Assembly: GCA_013115125.1 (NCBI GenBank)
Contig: JABANN010000108.1
Coordinates: 1 to 64,000 of the forward strand
Source of the DNA: Perkinsus olseni
Taxonomy: Eukaryota
Length of the DNA: 64,000 bases
Direction of reading: 5' to 3'
The stretch's first letter is position 1. Each line of letters opens with the position of its first letter. The notes under the pieces were generated by a model. It searched no databases and was not told where the DNA came from. It worked only from the letters and a program-made list of their open reading frames with translations. The translations under genes were made by a program, and so were the position numbers. This document shows positions 2,404 to 10,811 of this stretch, in pieces.

Positions 2404-2966
2404 ACGGGACATTGCCTCGTGAGCAGCCCCAACTAAGTACGATTTCTAGAAGGAGTGGTACCGCTAAATGTCACAAGATGATGTCCCCATTCGCTGTTGA
2501 ACCTGTCAGCAATGCTTCCTCCATGATCAGCCCGTATCATCAAGATTCCCACTGATTAACCGCACCGCCCGTGACATGGGACACGGAAGCCTTGCATGAC
2601 AGGCTTCAACCCAGCATCGTCACTCACCCTCACACCACGGCGACACGCACACAAAACAGTGGTAGAGGATCTCATCGGAATCTCGGCTCTCTCCTCTCCC
2701 ATCCGATGCTGCATCGGTGGCCGGAGTTGCCACAAGGTTGCAGTTGACTACGCAGACACTCCGCTTCTATGCTACGCAGTGACCTCCCAGGTCGCTGCAT
2801 GAGACGCTGACCGCCGATGGCTCGAAGTCCCGTCAGGAGGATTCTTCGTTACTGCGCAACTCAACGTTCTAATGTACACACCGAAGTTGAACATGACACA
2901 GTCAATTTATAATGGTATAACAGTAGTATGAACGTAATGGTATAATGACTGACAGAGGGGTGCAGA

Positions 2967-5900
2967 TCAGCAACGGCTTCCTCTGTACTTGTAGCCGTTA
3001 TCCATCATCTCCACGGTTTGTGAATGCTCCGTCAGCTTGGAATCTGCAACGTCCTTCAAAACACTCTCTCGGACTTCTTCAATCGTCTCTATACCGAGCG
3101 AGTATATATGCGTTTGCAGTGACATGAAGAGCTTAGCAATCTCTCGGCCACTGAAGCCTGAAAGCTTTTCAGCAACATCATAGAGGCAGTCGTCATCAAC
3201 TGTTGCATCAGAGTGTCCCCTGTGTGGCCCTCGGCTCTCCTCGGGGTTGCCCTCCTCAACATGTGGTCGACTGCGTCGTCTCACGCTCGCTGTCTTCCGT
3301 GCCCCTGCTGCTGCCGATCCGCCCCTCTTCACAACTGTTACAGAAGCTGGCTTGAGGAGAGGACTCGAAGGGCGGCTGACGTGGAGTTTCGACAACCTTG
3401 GCCTCTTCATCGGAGTCACGACGTACTTCTCGTAATACATACGACACAACATGTGACGCTCGATGGTATCAGGCAGCCCAAATTCGACGCTCTCATCAAT
3501 CCTATCGAGGACTGCAGCGTCGAGGTCCCCCGGGCGATTGGTAGCAAGGACGAGCATGAACTGCGACGAAGGTGTTCCTGTATGGTACAGCATGGTCGTC
3601 AAAGCGTTACGCATATGTTCCCCCATGCCAGCAGTCCGAGCGCCTGAAGAATCAACACTGCAAAGTCAAAACTTCAGAGCTTCCCACCCAGGAAAGCATC
3701 AGCCTCGTCAATGAAGAGGAGAACTCCCCGACGACTCTTCTTGACCCAATCGAAGAGGTTATGCAGTTCCGTGACGGCCATCTCGTTAAGCGGCGCGACA
3801 TCAGCGCCGCACATTATAGCATATTCCAGCCCCGAATACCTGCCAGGAAGAACATTCCTAAAGGGGTCGGTTAAACCTCCTCTTACTCAGCGAATCTCTC
3901 GGCTGTCATCGTCTTGCCAGTGCCGGGTGGGCCGTAGAACATGCAATGCAGCAACGGTTGCCCCCGCTGCTTTGCTGTACCTGCCAGGGGCCGTTGAACC
4001 ACACCCACTGGAGCTCATCTACGGGTCGCATCGGCGAGGCGCTTGATGGTGAACAGGTGATCGGGGCGGAGGACGACGTCCGAGAACACCCTTGAAGGAG
4101 CCCCTCGGTTGAAGATCCAATCTCGGACGTCCTGACGTCCAAAGTTATTTCCATCCCCAGGGTCAGGGAAGCATACATGAGCCAGAGACTTCCGACTAGT
4201 TCTCCTGAGAAGGCTTGGCTTCCCCAAACGCTTATTGAGCTGATCTCTGGCCAGCATCGCCATCTCACGCGTAAAGTAGATGGAAGCAGCACAACCTGAA
4301 CAAGGACGAGCGAGCCATCAGGGAGTGTGGTCTCTACCTGTAACTCACCCGCGAGGAAGCCGATGGTCCGGAGCACTTGGGTGGGCGAGGAGAAGAACCA
4401 CGATATCGACTCTCGAGCTTGATGCACAGATTCTCGTATATTCTGATGTCATAAACACTTAGAGGGTATTAAGCTGCTCACGATGGTTACCAACCTGTAA
4501 GGTGGTCTCCCTGTCTTCCCGAGCCCTGATCTCCATGGCCTCTAGATCATGCTTCGCTTTGGCCTCCATCTCCCGAAGGTTCACATCCTCATTCTCTCGC
4601 CTGTCCCTCAATCGGGCCTCCTCCCGAACTCTCGTTAACTCTATTTCCTTCTGAGCTTCTGCCTGACACGATCGTCATCATCACCGACCCTTCGACTCAC
4701 GCAGCGTGGACTAGAGGCCTCCCTCACGGCCTTACCTCGGCCTTCGCTCTCTCGGCGTCCACTGTCCGATTTAGTCGTTCCATTTCGAGATCGTGGCTTG
4801 CCTTCTGCTGCCTGTGCATGCAGTTCGAGGACGACGGAGCGACTCCCACCGACCCTCTTACCTCAGCTGACTTTCCTCCTGCATCTCCACCATCTTAGCA
4901 TCATGGGCTTCACGTCGATCCGATTCGGCCGCCACACGCCGTCTATGGAGGCTGAAAAGCGACATGCCGGAATCGAACCCGGGTCGTCTGTATGGCAGCT
5001 ACTCATCCTGATGCTCGTCAGCTTTCTTTTGAAGCTCTTGCTGTCGTTCCATGTTACTTCGTTCCATCTCCAGCCGCATCTTCTCGAGGCGTATCTTCGC
5101 CATGGTCGCCTCCAACTCGAGCTCCGCCTGAGGGGACCACCTCTCACCACCACCCGCCGAACTAAGACTGATCTTAGGCCATTCCCGGCATCATACTCAT
5201 ACCCGATACGATCCAAATCTGGTGGATTGGATGACCTCACATGTTTGGTGATCTGCAGGAGATCTTCACTGGCCTGTTTCTCCATAGCCTTCCACAACTC
5301 CGTCACATTACTCTCGAGAGACGCCAATCTTCGCCTGTCATCCTCGATCTCCGAGGAGAGCTCAGCCGATCGACGCTGGTAGAGTTCGCCATACTCTTCC
5401 AGGGAAGAACTGATGGGGAAGATCTTCTATGCAGAGTGGTTGTCTTGCTAGGCTTACTTGACACGACTTAGCCTCTCTTGCAATTCCTCAACGTTGCGGC
5501 TTACTCCTTCCCCTCGTTCAACCGCTTCCTGTCTATAATCCTCCACCAGAAAGGACAATGAGTAATGCAACGAACGCAGGGCCCTCATGGAGTCCTTGAG
5601 GTCATCTAAGCCGAGACCCAATACCACTCCTTTCTCAAATCATCCCTCTCGTTACCTAGCGATCGTTTGCTCCTCTCTGACTCCGTCTCTAGTTTCCTAT
5701 TCAACCCTTCTCTTTCCCGTACCATCGCTTCCTCGCTCTTAACCATCGCCTTCATGAGAACCCTGATCAGCACTTGCCGTCAGCCGAATAAATCACTTCA
5801 CAGACCCTCTCGAAAAGTCGTGCTCAATGACATATTCAAAGAACGATAGTATGAACTCTTTTTCATAAGTAACATCAGAGTAACATCGGAGATGCTATAA

Positions 5901-7947
5901 AATTATATATAAGACTGAGGTAGTGGTGGGAATACTAGAATGATAAGTAGTGTAATAATGTATCCAATATCAGCCATTAAAGAATTGATTTATCGAGAGT
6001 TGTGAAAATATTGGTATTGGGTAAATATAAATGATCTTGGTGAACTACTAGAGGCTGCAGCTAAGGAGCACTCACTCCATCTTGTCATCCATTCGAGAGG
6101 TGAGGTGTCGATGATCTTCCTTCAATCGATCAACCTCGAACTCTTGTTTCTTCCCTCGCGTATCCGTTTGCTCGACTGCGGTCTCCAGACGATGTATATC
6201 ATGGTTCACAACGTGGACCTGTTTTGAATCATGCACGCATGTATACCACGTATCTTTGGGATTACCTTAGTATTGAGGCCTTGAACTTTCTCACTCTGCC
6301 GGATCTGTTCATCATTAACCCGACTCATGTCCTCATTGATCTTTTTCATCTCGCTACTCCATTTCGACACTCTAAAGCAGGGCGCATTATCATCATCCGG
6401 ACGACCTCTAGCTCTTGAAAATCGAACCACCAAAACGGCGGTTTCCGAGGCATGCCTTGTGACTTGGCTACCCGCAGTGCTATCAACATCTTGGATGACA
6501 CAGTTCTTTCCCGACCCGTCCCAGAGATTGTGAGATTCATCGCTCCGTTGGTGAGTGATAATGTCCCAGTAGTAGTATAGCTCACTTCTCACCTATCCCA
6601 GTAGTCGCCAGCCACATGCTCATGGCGCGCTGCAAGTTCCTGTAGTGCTCCTAATGCTGTCATCAACAGATGAGCCTCCCGGACCATGTATCTGAGGTGA
6701 TTGTGATGATGATTTGGCGGAAGTGTGGTACGCCGAGTTCGCCCAAACTTACACGTTCTTCGTCCGTGCTTGGGTTCCATTCAAGGAAGTCCACCTGAGG
6801 AATCACCAGCGTATATCAAATCATGAATAACATAAACTAAATCCTCTTCGATGACTGTCGCCGCTCCGACCAAGCGTGCCCTTCATTTGGCTTTGGCAAT
6901 GCGTCTCACATTTCCCTGTTGATGATGACAGCTGGTGAGCATCGCGAGCGCACCGAGATGCCACTCATAAATAAGAAAACCCGAGATGCCACTGGACACA
7001 GTGGAGATTGGACACCCATACCGACGATACTGCCGATAATGATCCGACCGACCTTCTCTCAGGTAGTAATGACACGGCCTCAGGCATTATCGCTTGGAGC
7101 TCCTGTGCGATCAACCCGAGCTGTCTCGTCGCGAAGAACTTGTTGAAAAATTCCCGTTCGGTGTGCGTATACACTCGTAGCTGAGAAGAAGCGATGTGAA
7201 CTCGGTGTTTGCTCTTGCACCAGGATGTACTCCTGATCTTCAGTAGACCCGCGAGAACTCGAACTGCCCACCTGCATTTTCCGGAGCTGCTCATAGAGCT
7301 TCGTATGGTTAGCGGGCTGCACGTCACTCTTCAGAGAGATATCGCCGAACCTGATCCCGCGGCCCGGGTGTGTGCATGCGTGCACGTTTTACTTCCCTCA
7401 CATGCTTTGGTCTACACAACTGCTGCATTGTAGCAGCCAATTGTTGGCCGCCACTTCCTGTACAGTAGCAACGATGAAGATAACGATGCTGATGGTAGCA
7501 CGGCAACTCCGATAACGAAGGAATGATACCATCTAGGGGAAACCAATCGGCCGACTGAAAACAACTACGAAAGTCGTGCTTCTGTCAGCGATGAGGTCGA
7601 ACTGGTACCGAATGAAATCACAAAGTTCCAAGTTGGCGTTGGAAGAAGCGGTTTTGTCCACCCGACAGGATTAACAACACAACATGCGGTCAAGGATTGT
7701 CTACATGCTCCGCCAGAGAGACTTTGATTGTCTATCATTCACCACCACCACCACCACCACCACCACCAACAAACTGTCGACGACGGCAACTCATCGATTG
7801 AGATGAGTTGGTAACATCAGTAACACCCTGGGAGGGTTCGAGTGGTATCGAAATTACACCAAATAGATGACCAAGTTGAACAACGATGAGGACGATGAGA
7901 AGGAGGACGCTAACAACGAACGACGAAAACCACGACCAATGGTGCAC
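2967..7947 (-). CDS. ATAD3: ATAD3-like AAA+ ATPase with N-terminal hydrophobic segment, Peptidase_S74/intramolecular-chaperone-like domain and long coiled coil (multi-exon; 5' exons uncertain)
   Basis: Walker [13 protein letters not shown] (~3907-3942), '[34 protein letters not shown]' and ATAD3-type '[12 protein letters not shown]'. Upstream exons give 'GDISLKSDV', '[14 protein letters not shown]' and 'ALGALQEL'. A phase-compatible intron (~5764-6074) joins the two halves. Confidence 0.75.
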
Positions 7948-8057
7948 ATCGGAAATAAGGCAGAAAAATCAAGAAAAAAAAATCTAGTGATACGGCAAAC
8001 GAACCAGTGTATTTCTGTATCTTTCGCCCATCAACCCTCGTTAGCCGATTATTGATA

Positions 8058-10012
8058 TCACTGCTGGGCGCAGGAGCCGCCGGGAACATCTGTCTCCGCG
8101 GATCCAGCAATCTCAGGGGACATCTTGAACTTCCTCTTGACCTCTTCTGGAAGGGCCGCTGGATGCCCCTCGACCTGCTGAGGGATAAGCCCGTCATGTG
8201 CAGCCGAAAAAGGTCCGTTGTCCTACTGATGGTGATACAGTTGGGCGGTGAGTATTGGCATTGGAAGGGGTTGGTGATGGTACTCCCAAAGATGCTGCCA
8301 GCGTGAGGGCCACATTGGCGACCGCATCTGGAAGGACGCTCATCACGTAGGCCGACGAGGGCTATTGAAAAGAAGGTTGTCACACTACCACTGCCCTCAA
8401 GACAGAGGGGTATTCTAAATGTCATTCATGCATGATGCGGTATAACAAGCCCTACCATCTGCTACTACTACTACCTCCTCCGTTCTCGTCTGTTGCCTCG
8501 CTCGAAGCCAGCACGCCCATCGCTTGTATCAGCAGCTGCAGCCGCTCAGGCGTGGTGGCAAAGTCACGAATCTACCATCACAGGGTTGCGGACAAACCCT
8601 CATCAGCGCTCTCTAATACGTATGCGTGGAAGATGGCGATACCATCCCTACTCAGAGCAGGCCACAGTCGAAGGGGCGAACGAAGCAAAGGCGAAGTCCC
8701 CACAATCCCAGACCACCTGAACTGCCAATTCCATCGCAATGAGTGCTGGCTCAGTGGTGGTGTTGGGCGTTGCCTTCCTGTCTCTCTCGGGCTGACCAGG
8801 GATTCATCCCATCAGGAGGTACACGGGCATACACTCACTTCATTATTAATTCCACTACGTTCATAATCCGGGGACGACACATCCTGGCCTTGTCCGTAGT
8901 ATTGGTTGTCGAAGTAATAATCGTTCTCAGCTTCGCCGTAATAGAAGTCGTCATACTCATCATACTGGGAGCCACGGGGCCTCACCTGTTCAGCTATTCA
9001 ATGTTATCAAGCTCATCGGTGTCTCAGTGACAACAAACGAGGTCCCGGGTTCGAACCCCAGGTATTCCATTATTCGCACAGGGACCAGAGGTGGAAAATC
9101 ATTCTTCGAGGACCCCACAAAGCAGCACAAATCCTCCTCTCCCGCACCACCGCGATGCTACTACCGGGTATCCTATCGGTTTGGGTGGTCGGTATTTCAA
9201 CTCCTGCGGCGAGTGTACGAAGAAGCATTGTCCCTTCCGAGCGAACTCACAGTTGGGGCCGTAGCGACAAAACCTAAAACGATCGGTCTGATAATAACGA
9301 GGGTATCATCAGGATGATCGGAGCCTGACTTAGTCTTCAGGAGTCTCTGGTGACGCTCCACTTCGAAGGTGTCATGGCGAATTCCGAGAGGGATATATCG
9401 GATACCAGACTGCCGCTCTAAACTGGGTCGCCTGACACGATTTGGGGGAGAGATGGTATGATGCAGGGGCTCACCCTCGGGTGGCTCCTAATGATGCATT
9501 TGATGCGTTATCAGCCGCTCCCGTATACCTCCCGTCAACGGATCCTGCAACATGGAATCACTAACGCGAACATGCACACACGCAGTTCGTGAATATCGCG
9601 ACCCCCTAACCTCATTGGACGTGTCTCTTCTACTACTCCCAAGTCACCGAAGGTAATGAGCATTCCGAAGCCTCCCACTTCTTTCGCGATAGTGGGAATA
9701 CTCTCGGGAGACTTTTGGGAGGCTTCGGCAAGAGAAGACGAGGCAGTACGATGAGTTCAGGTGAGGCTATCCTCAAACGAGATCCTATCACGTGCGAGGC
9801 AATCCGAAGAACCGGACCGGATGGGCGTCCATTCTCCGGGTCATCACCTTTATTAGAACTGCTCTTGCCCTCGGTACTCTCCCTCGACGAGGCTGAGCTA
9901 TCTGATGCGACCTAAGGTTAACTCATGCAAGGAAGGTACGCCCCTAGGAAGTCTTGAGGGAGATCCTGTTTACCTTATCCCCTTGCTCAGCCGGTGTTTC
10001 CGAAGATACCAT
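8058..10012 (-). CDS. Hypothetical multi-exon protein ending in ...GGSCAQQ (CaaX-like)
   Basis: Series of open segments separated by GT-AG introns. The last exon reads 'FKMSPEIAGSAETDVPGGSCAQQ*'. No recognisable domain. Confidence 0.4.
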
Positions 10013-10124: not shown

Positions 10125-10811
10125 CTACGGGGTGGGCTTAGTGATGATCGTTATGGCGTGCCACTTCTTGATCTCATCCTTCAACGCTTCATTAACCATC
10201 TGATGCTGTTTGATCCGAGGAAGACCTACGATGAAGGGAATGTGTGGTATCAAGAGCCTGTAAGCAAGCACTAAAGCAACCTGCCCAGCCCTTAAGGGCA
10301 TATAGGATAACTAGCGTTAAAAGCACCGCGTCCAATGTACACAAGGGTATCAGCATAATCTCTTTTTCCCGTGCACTGAAAAGCCTAGGCTACATCCCTA
10401 CGAGTTACAACGCGCCCTATCAACATCCACGATGAATGCAGTAATATCAGAGAGTCTCTATACCCCGGTTAGTACCAACAAATTTAGGTGACTGCACTTC
10501 AACCCTGTAGCTCGATCCACATCCTCCTGATACATCTTCTACCTTGGTCGATGTCGCCCCTAATGTAGCCCGCAGGAGGGACTCGAGCTGAGATGGAGCA
10601 GACAACATACCCTCTGAAACGACGAGCGGACAGGACAACGTGAGTAAGTAGGGTTTGCTAGGCCCTCTCTTTAGAGGGAACACTTCTCAGCTCGATCAGT
10701 GTTTAGTAACTCGTCCGCCTGCGCTCTGGAAGCGAACTTCCGACAACAGAATCGAAGCTCTAATGGTATAACGAGACTATGAACACGGACATAAGGGTGT
10801 AACGTGAGCAT
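10125..10811 (-). CDS. BolA-family protein
   Basis: 'VEDVSGGCGSSYRVEVQSPKFVG|LPRIKQHQMVNEALKDEIKKWHAITI' is the BolA signature, with one ~240-nt intron. Start uncertain. Confidence 0.85.

Follow-up and report, generated by a model that had tools for sequence, protein, structure and literature searches.

A single gene on the minus strand of the 64,000-nt stretch of Perkinsus olseni DNA analysed here (assembly GCA_013115125.1, contig JABANN010000108.1, positions 1 to 64,000; hereafter the window) encoded a hydrophobic leader, a Peptidase_S74 domain of the intramolecular chaperone (ICA) type, a long predicted coiled coil, the ATAD3_N region, one transmembrane helix, and an intact AAA+ domain, in this order. 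The gene extended from nt 7532 to 2967, with 20 exons and 951 amino acids (aa), and it is almost certain that the S74, coiled-coil, and ATAD3 parts form one gene. The product is read here as a secretory-pathway ATAD3 paralog, with a trimerising S74-coil stalk in the lumen and an AAA+ motor in the cytosol, a model to which we give a probability of about 0.6.

The 20-exon model was derived from the public P. olseni protein P0001, which mapped exon by exon onto the window; all 19 introns were GT-AG, and the 951 codons contained neither stop nor frameshift. Nt 4800-7600 had one match in the genome assembly (G000). However, P0001 also took in the upstream gene (10012-8064), and P0002 of P. chesapeaki additionally a BolA gene; since both merge neighbours, the public models alone are no proof of a fusion and were dropped as such. 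The disputed junction was examined in contigs from 4 of the 11 available runs (X1, X2, X3, and X5), X1 being treated as RNA because its contigs were spliced. As the first-pass annotation had proposed, the exon ended at 6076, was followed by a 313-nt GT..AG phase-2 intron (6075-5763), and continued in frame into VLMKAM. Record 4 of X1 (1132 nt), reaching from 5387 to ~7300, skipped exactly these 313 nt in frame with a shorter flank of 106 nt; thus, the stretch is removed as a phase-2 intron. Joints placed on this record from contig pieces plus record arithmetic were 5605/5656, 5761/6075, 6216/6264, 6371/6593, 6691/6753, and 7180/7272, while record 3, overlapping record 4 by 28 nt, was spliced on into ATAD3_N. 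At least 10 of the 19 model introns agreed with RNA joints among those listed. Separate transcripts ending or starting within 5800-6070, one of two outcomes named in advance as contrary to a fusion (the other being failure of the S74 profile to match), were not seen, and complete transcripts of other organisms encoded the same architecture (see below), so that the claim of a single fused gene stands. The junction intron was rejected as a repeat, being single copy in the assembly, and no Rfam match was found in nt 2500-8500 that would make it an RNA host.

The 5′ limit given previously, nt 7947, did not hold. Contigs of all four runs covered ~7780-8170 unspliced, as the transcript of the upstream gene behind its stop near 8058, and position 7947 therefore lies in the 3′ untranslated region of that gene. 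The ATG at 7949-7947, which opens a 31-codon frame inside that transcript, was rejected; the start is probably the ATG at 7532, directly behind an AG. The bin 4236-4452 was uncovered and depth dropped above ~7550, neither of which was used as evidence.

The Pfam S74 profile (cut-off 22 bits) matched both one exon frame (1 of 24 frames scanned; E = 2.9e-5, 24.7 bits) and the spliced protein P0001 (E = 1.2e-7, 32.4 bits), and the three peptides quoted in the first-pass annotation were located on the minus strand at ~7346-7272, 7120-7070, and 6651-6630. In hhalign, the S74 profile aligned with the MYRF-type protein P0089 over 111 columns, C-terminal helix included (probability 95.9), a further S74 comparison giving 95.6; the top Atlas matches for the region were S74 clusters (0.90). 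A PDB sequence search with an exon as query returned one chance match, and a PDB profile search returned AAA proteins only among the best 60 of 326 matches. The window read G-D-I-S-L-K where the catalytic motif is S-D-x-R-x-K; in the MYRF-type alignment its Gly fell on the catalytic Ser and its Lys on the Lys, in agreement with the earlier reading of this position, and the Ser-Lys dyad is thus incomplete. Among 30 close relatives, the Ser position was occupied by S in 17, G in 11, A in one, and a gap in one, with the dyad Lys in 30/30 and the motif Arg in 0/30, while the full S-D-x-R-x-K motif was present in 6/9 members of a more distant clade. Cleavage of MYRF is abolished by S587A or K592A, and trimerisation of its ICA domain is driven by the triple coiled coil at the C-terminal end (PMC8326128; PMC3742443). 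Given these mutants and the Gly in place of Ser, self-cleavage of the window protein is unlikely, and the S74 domain is very probably a non-cleaving one, as had been suggested; from knowledge of the family, we infer that it may form a trimer. Two more S74 genes were present in the genome (L008, G000:C3123:137785-138003, and L009, G000:C1104:106353-106538), both with an intact T-S-D-R-R-L-K motif that is apparently close to the C-terminus of their proteins.

The ATAD3 assignment was likewise borne out, since PF12037 matched P0001 with E = 4.9e-16 and 59.3 bits (cut-off 25) over profile positions 47-265 of 265. Behind the membrane helix lay an AAA+ domain with Walker A, Walker B, and an Arg-finger-type motif, the last of which we presume from the motif. 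The canonical N-terminal FDP..LER motif was absent from the window protein and present in a canonical ATAD3 encoded elsewhere in the same genome, at G000:C2158. With this canonical copy in the genome, the window gene is, by sequence, a paralog and not the canonical orthologue. Of 95 cores, 69 entered the tree after 26 had been dropped for an identical 45-residue AAA stretch, and 306 columns were analysed with IQ-TREE. The 36 canonical cores, including the G000 copy, were split from the other 33 with an ultrafast bootstrap (UFBoot) value of 93, and the window protein fell outside the canonical clade, nested in a clade of proteins of the N-W type (87), so named here for the invariant N-W described below. 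Canonical ATAD3 carries its ATPase in the mitochondrial matrix, and a hexameric ring is predicted for ATAD3A (PMC13249166 and PMC8785211, the ring in the latter). No ATAD3 or S74 label was found in the main text or supplements searched of the P. marinus complexome (PMC13623125), which were available in part. A 774-aa ATAD3-like protein (L055:8-2329) with an Arg-rich, mitochondrial-looking N-terminus branched between the canonical and the other cores.

In the first-pass annotation, the hydrophobic N-terminus was taken to add a membrane anchor to a mitochondrial ATAD3. The family as a whole did not support this reading: its leaders resemble cleavable signal peptides, cut before a conserved N-W. 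With eight fused proteins that looked truncated omitted, the leader was hydrophobic (10-residue Kyte-Doolittle maximum of at least 2.0) in 28 of 31 fused versus 1 of 21 canonical proteins, and small residues occurred at a fixed distance before the invariant N-W. Summed over 28 close relatives, N-x-S/T sequons before the helix numbered 76 versus 46.8 in shuffled sequences, and those behind it, on the ATPase side, 36 versus 39.3; seven canonical proteins had 4 versus 6.1. One S74 hairpin loop bore a sequon in 28/30, at either of two positions. The median helix hydrophobicity was 2.03 in the fused family (n = 29) versus 1.23 in canonical proteins (n = 7). Taken together, the signs from leader, sequons, and helix favour a cleavable signal, with the N-terminal half in the lumen and the ATPase in the cytosol; the probable topology is that of a type I membrane protein whose stalk is luminal.

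The wide family sharing this architecture had been missed in the first pass, as had the canonical copy. A search with the S74 exon frame gave three proteins among 1002 candidates, all named Perkinsus, whereas residues 325-690 of P0001 as query gave 18 proteins among 5161 candidates, 15 of them labelled S74+ATAD3_N+AAA. A rescan of the same 18 at E 1e-5 called S74 in 14, ATAD3_N in 18, and AAA in 18; five were named as complete transcript open reading frames, one from Gymnodinium smaydae. An unrestricted search with the N-terminal part of a homologue, without length limit, gave 60 matches, of which 27, plus three proteins from another search, were scanned for domains; these 30 comprised 18 with S74+ATAD3_N, five with ATAD3_N and no S74 call, four with S74 only, and three of MYRF type. 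Besides P. olseni, the fused architecture thus occurred in P. chesapeaki, in dinoflagellates (as complete transcripts), and in the more distant clade mentioned above (P0046, P0050, P0052, P0054, P0055, P0058, P0065, P0068, and P0083). P0055 was named Durusdinium trenchii and yet grouped at 100 with this distant clade and not with the dinoflagellate-type proteins, suggesting either a second paralog or a contaminant record. The clusters nearest to P0052 in the Atlas were long ATAD3s, mostly of diatoms and oomycetes (0.96 and 0.95), in which S74 is unconfirmed. Perkinsus and dinoflagellates are the named members observed, and the stramenopile range is inferred from these clusters.

The window protein was 90% identical to that of P. 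chesapeaki in S74 and 93% in AAA, versus 17% in the leader and 100% in the next 16 residues. Among 80 metagenome loci, eight matched our own S74 profile, none of the eight having the canonical FDP motif. Several non-canonical ATAD3s grouped with the fused ones: L021:13-1956 and L070:1593-5657 had hydrophobic leaders and no S74 call, L074:2193-4775 had a borderline S74 (22.7 bits), L077:669-2786 was its near twin, and L083:40-2679 had an S74-like stretch by eye only. This pattern suggests that S74 may have decayed or been lost in parts of the subfamily. Automatic annotation does show the domains of fused proteins, which it files under generic AAA names. No description of an S74-ATAD3 architecture was found in the open full-text literature, most subscription journals being outside its coverage. 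Ten text supplements of the Plasmodium ATAD3 paper had no match to four myzozoan names; its tree figure, not covered by that search, may bear on the point.

Table 1. Features of the S74-ATAD3 gene and their positions in the window
Feature	Position	Strand	Evidence
Probable start and hydrophobic leader, predicted cleavable signal peptide, aa 1-29	7446..7532	-	ATG behind AG; hydrophobicity test
Conserved 16-residue segment with CxxC, before S74, aa 30-45, spanning intron 1	7347..7445	-	Alignments
Peptidase_S74/ICA domain, aa 46-146, exons 2-5	6634..7346	-	Pfam; hhalign to MYRF-type P0089
Gly at catalytic Ser position	7346-7344	-	
Kept Lys	7331-7329	-	
Predicted 258-nt GT-AG intron within S74; stop at aa 142 if retained	6795..7052	-	Retained in bridging contig
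Predicted coiled coil between S74 and ATAD3_N, aa 147-361	5310..6633	-	Heptad count; long helix begins in model
313-nt AT-rich phase-2 intron, disputed junction	5763..6075	-	Skipped in X1 contig record 4; GC 0.36
Predicted 48-nt GT-AG intron; stop at aa 329 if retained	5410..5457	-	Retained in X1 contigs
ATAD3_N match, aa 362-599, first 46 profile positions absent	4204..5309	-	Pfam PF12037
Predicted transmembrane helix, aa 558-576, spanning an intron	4273..4382	-	
AAA+ domain and C-terminal tail, stop at 2967	2967..3980	-	Pfam AAA, E 1.1e-22
Walker A	3933-3910	-	
Walker B	3721-3704	-	
Arg-finger-type motif (presumed)	3509-3495	-	

Upstream of the fusion lay a zinc-finger gene (7778-10012; CCCH-like in our own reading) and a BolA gene (~10200-10700), an order that the merged P0002 of P. 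chesapeaki shares. The last intron of the zinc-finger gene (8172-8227) occurred in two forms, 8172/8225 in X1, X3, and X5 and 8177/8227 in X2, and a (CAC)n run (7741-7768) was located at the 3′ end of its transcript. Just past the 3′ end of the fusion gene, an X1 contig covered 2500-2854 with an adapter end at 2854.

In the proposed model, the chain would enter the endoplasmic reticulum (ER) and lose its leader before N-W, leaving the N-terminal half luminal, glycosylated, and possibly disulfide-bonded. Nucleated by the uncleaved S74 domains, three chains would form a parallel coiled coil, ~400 residues long in the window protein; at the coiled-coil rise of 0.15 nm per residue, the stalk could be up to ~60 nm long. 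The helix would halt transfer, and the AAA+ domains would assemble into a ring in the cytosol, with two trimers per hexamer or with trimers linking rings. ATP cycles might act on a substrate in the cytosol or the membrane, or put tension on the luminal stalk, and the protein would serve, driven by ATP, as a spacer or remodeller spanning the lumen of an endomembrane compartment.

Known systems resemble parts of this protein. Members of the ATAD3 family (human ATAD3A and Plasmodium PF3D7_0707400; PF12037 and PF00004) share the ATAD3_N coiled coils, the single helix, and the AAA+ domain with Walker A/B and the Arg-finger-type motif, but the window protein lacks the first 46 profile positions, which include the FDP motif, adds a leader, S74, and ~215 coiled-coil residues, falls outside the canonical clade, and is predicted to be secretory instead of mitochondrial. 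The ICA region of MYRF/MrfA (PF13884 and PF13887; PDB 7DC3) likewise has the S74 core, over the 111 columns mentioned, with a coiled coil and a membrane helix behind it; in the window protein, however, S74 is at the mature N-terminus with ~16 residues between the predicted leader and the domain, so that there is no upstream beta-helix or other client to fold or release, the Ser is Gly, the predicted side is luminal instead of cytosolic, and the partner is an ATPase instead of a transcription factor. The intramolecular chaperones of phage tailspikes (endosialidase, Peptidase_S74) belong to the same Pfam family but are C-terminal and remove themselves, whereas in the window protein the S74 domain lies at the N-terminus and probably stays attached. 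SUN proteins of the LINC complex have a trimeric luminal coiled coil, a terminal domain, and a membrane anchor, without an ATPase; they are an analogy to the predicted stalk only, homology not being implied.

Several observations weigh against the proposed reading. The junction was backed by one contig in one run (X1), X2, X3, and X5 reaching no further than the upstream gene and the last exon; this X1 contig ended at 5387, short of the ATAD3_N match, and retained the 258-nt and 48-nt introns, each bringing one stop, so that the complete reading frame is not seen in any RNA from P. olseni. Seven further model introns had no matching RNA joint among those listed, and no gene-spanning RNA piece was found among the pieces listed from the four runs. 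The sequon counts came from related sequences and hence are not independent, the reversed control motif was also somewhat raised before the helix (56), and Asn-Gly is favoured in beta-turns anyway; the helix of the window protein itself scored 1.16, within the canonical range. The tree had no outgroup, and deeper nodes among non-canonical cores were weak (56-66). The structure model was weak as well (predicted local distance difference test score, 58): chains of the MYRF ICA structure 7DC3 ranked 1-3, with E values of 0.13-0.18 and a template modelling score of 0.31, and a wide fold search with this model gave coiled coils only, with Z of 5.8 or less.

Of the four other explanations weighed, the least probable by far, and scarcely credible, is that gene prediction merged two adjoining genes and that 5763-6075 is intergenic. 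That stretch is AT-rich, an in-frame stop follows the exon directly, an ATG lies 7 bases beyond the acceptor, and P0001 and P0002 do swallow upstream neighbours, but spliced RNA crosses it in frame and other organisms encode the same fusion in complete transcripts. It is also very unlikely that the full-length protein is rarely made in P. olseni; in that reading, intron retention would leave only degraded RNA or short S74 products that are secreted, and the fused frame would be a relic or stage-limited. The sole bridging contig does keep two introns; both, however, have canonical GT-AG ends within a frame that is otherwise open throughout, the S74 and AAA identities to P. chesapeaki far exceed that of the leader, and assembled contigs drop variants.

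Two further explanations accept the full-length protein and place it elsewhere. The protein might enter the ER and work at complex-plastid membranes or another alveolate- or stramenopile-specific compartment, as the named members (Perkinsus and dinoflagellates) and the mostly diatom and oomycete Atlas clusters would allow; complex-plastid targeting begins with a signal peptide. This is improbable: the conserved domain begins at once behind the leader, with no transit-peptide-like stretch in between, and oomycetes have no plastids. A somewhat stronger case, though still an unlikely one, is that the protein stays a mitochondrial ATAD3 whose uncleaved leader anchors it in the ER or the outer membrane, a cytosolic S74-coil stalk tethering both organelles. 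Of the alternatives, this one comes nearest to the view taken in the first-pass annotation. ATAD3_N, helix, and AAA+ are all kept, the window helix is no more hydrophobic than canonical ones, the MYRF ICA domain is on the cytosolic side, and the N-terminal region of ATAD3A faces the outer membrane or cytosol and is linked to ER contacts (PMC13249166; PMC8785211). Against it, the small residues before the invariant N-W resemble a cleavage site, sequons are raised on the N-terminal side only, helices of the family are more hydrophobic than canonical ones, and the canonical N-terminal motif is absent while a canonical paralog is present in the genome.

The secretory-pathway reading allows a bolder and tentative extension, namely that the gene belongs to an ancient and so far undescribed ATAD3 subfamily, of alveolates and probably also of stramenopiles, whose members have left the mitochondrion. 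Such a protein would span a secretory membrane and combine a cytosolic hexameric motor, a luminal trimeric stalk of up to ~40-60 nm, and an S74 cap as N-terminal trimer nucleator. One clade would still cleave itself just behind the leader, cleavage having been lost in the dinoflagellate-Perkinsus clade, and the mismatch of three versus six might cross-link rings into a membrane-spacing lattice.

ATAD3 has been treated as strictly mitochondrial and S74/ICA as a self-cleaving chaperone behind its client; both rules appear to be broken in one conserved protein. The family would provide a natural test of what an ATAD3 motor does outside mitochondria, of how trimers couple to hexamers, and, because Ser-type and Gly-type members coexist, of how an ICA domain functions when it does not cleave itself. 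Counts of ATAD3 in alveolates mix two different proteins. In a shellfish parasite with relatives in the marine plankton, the S74 fusion and the predicted secretion signal are likely to shift the ATAD3 motor from mitochondria to secretory membranes.

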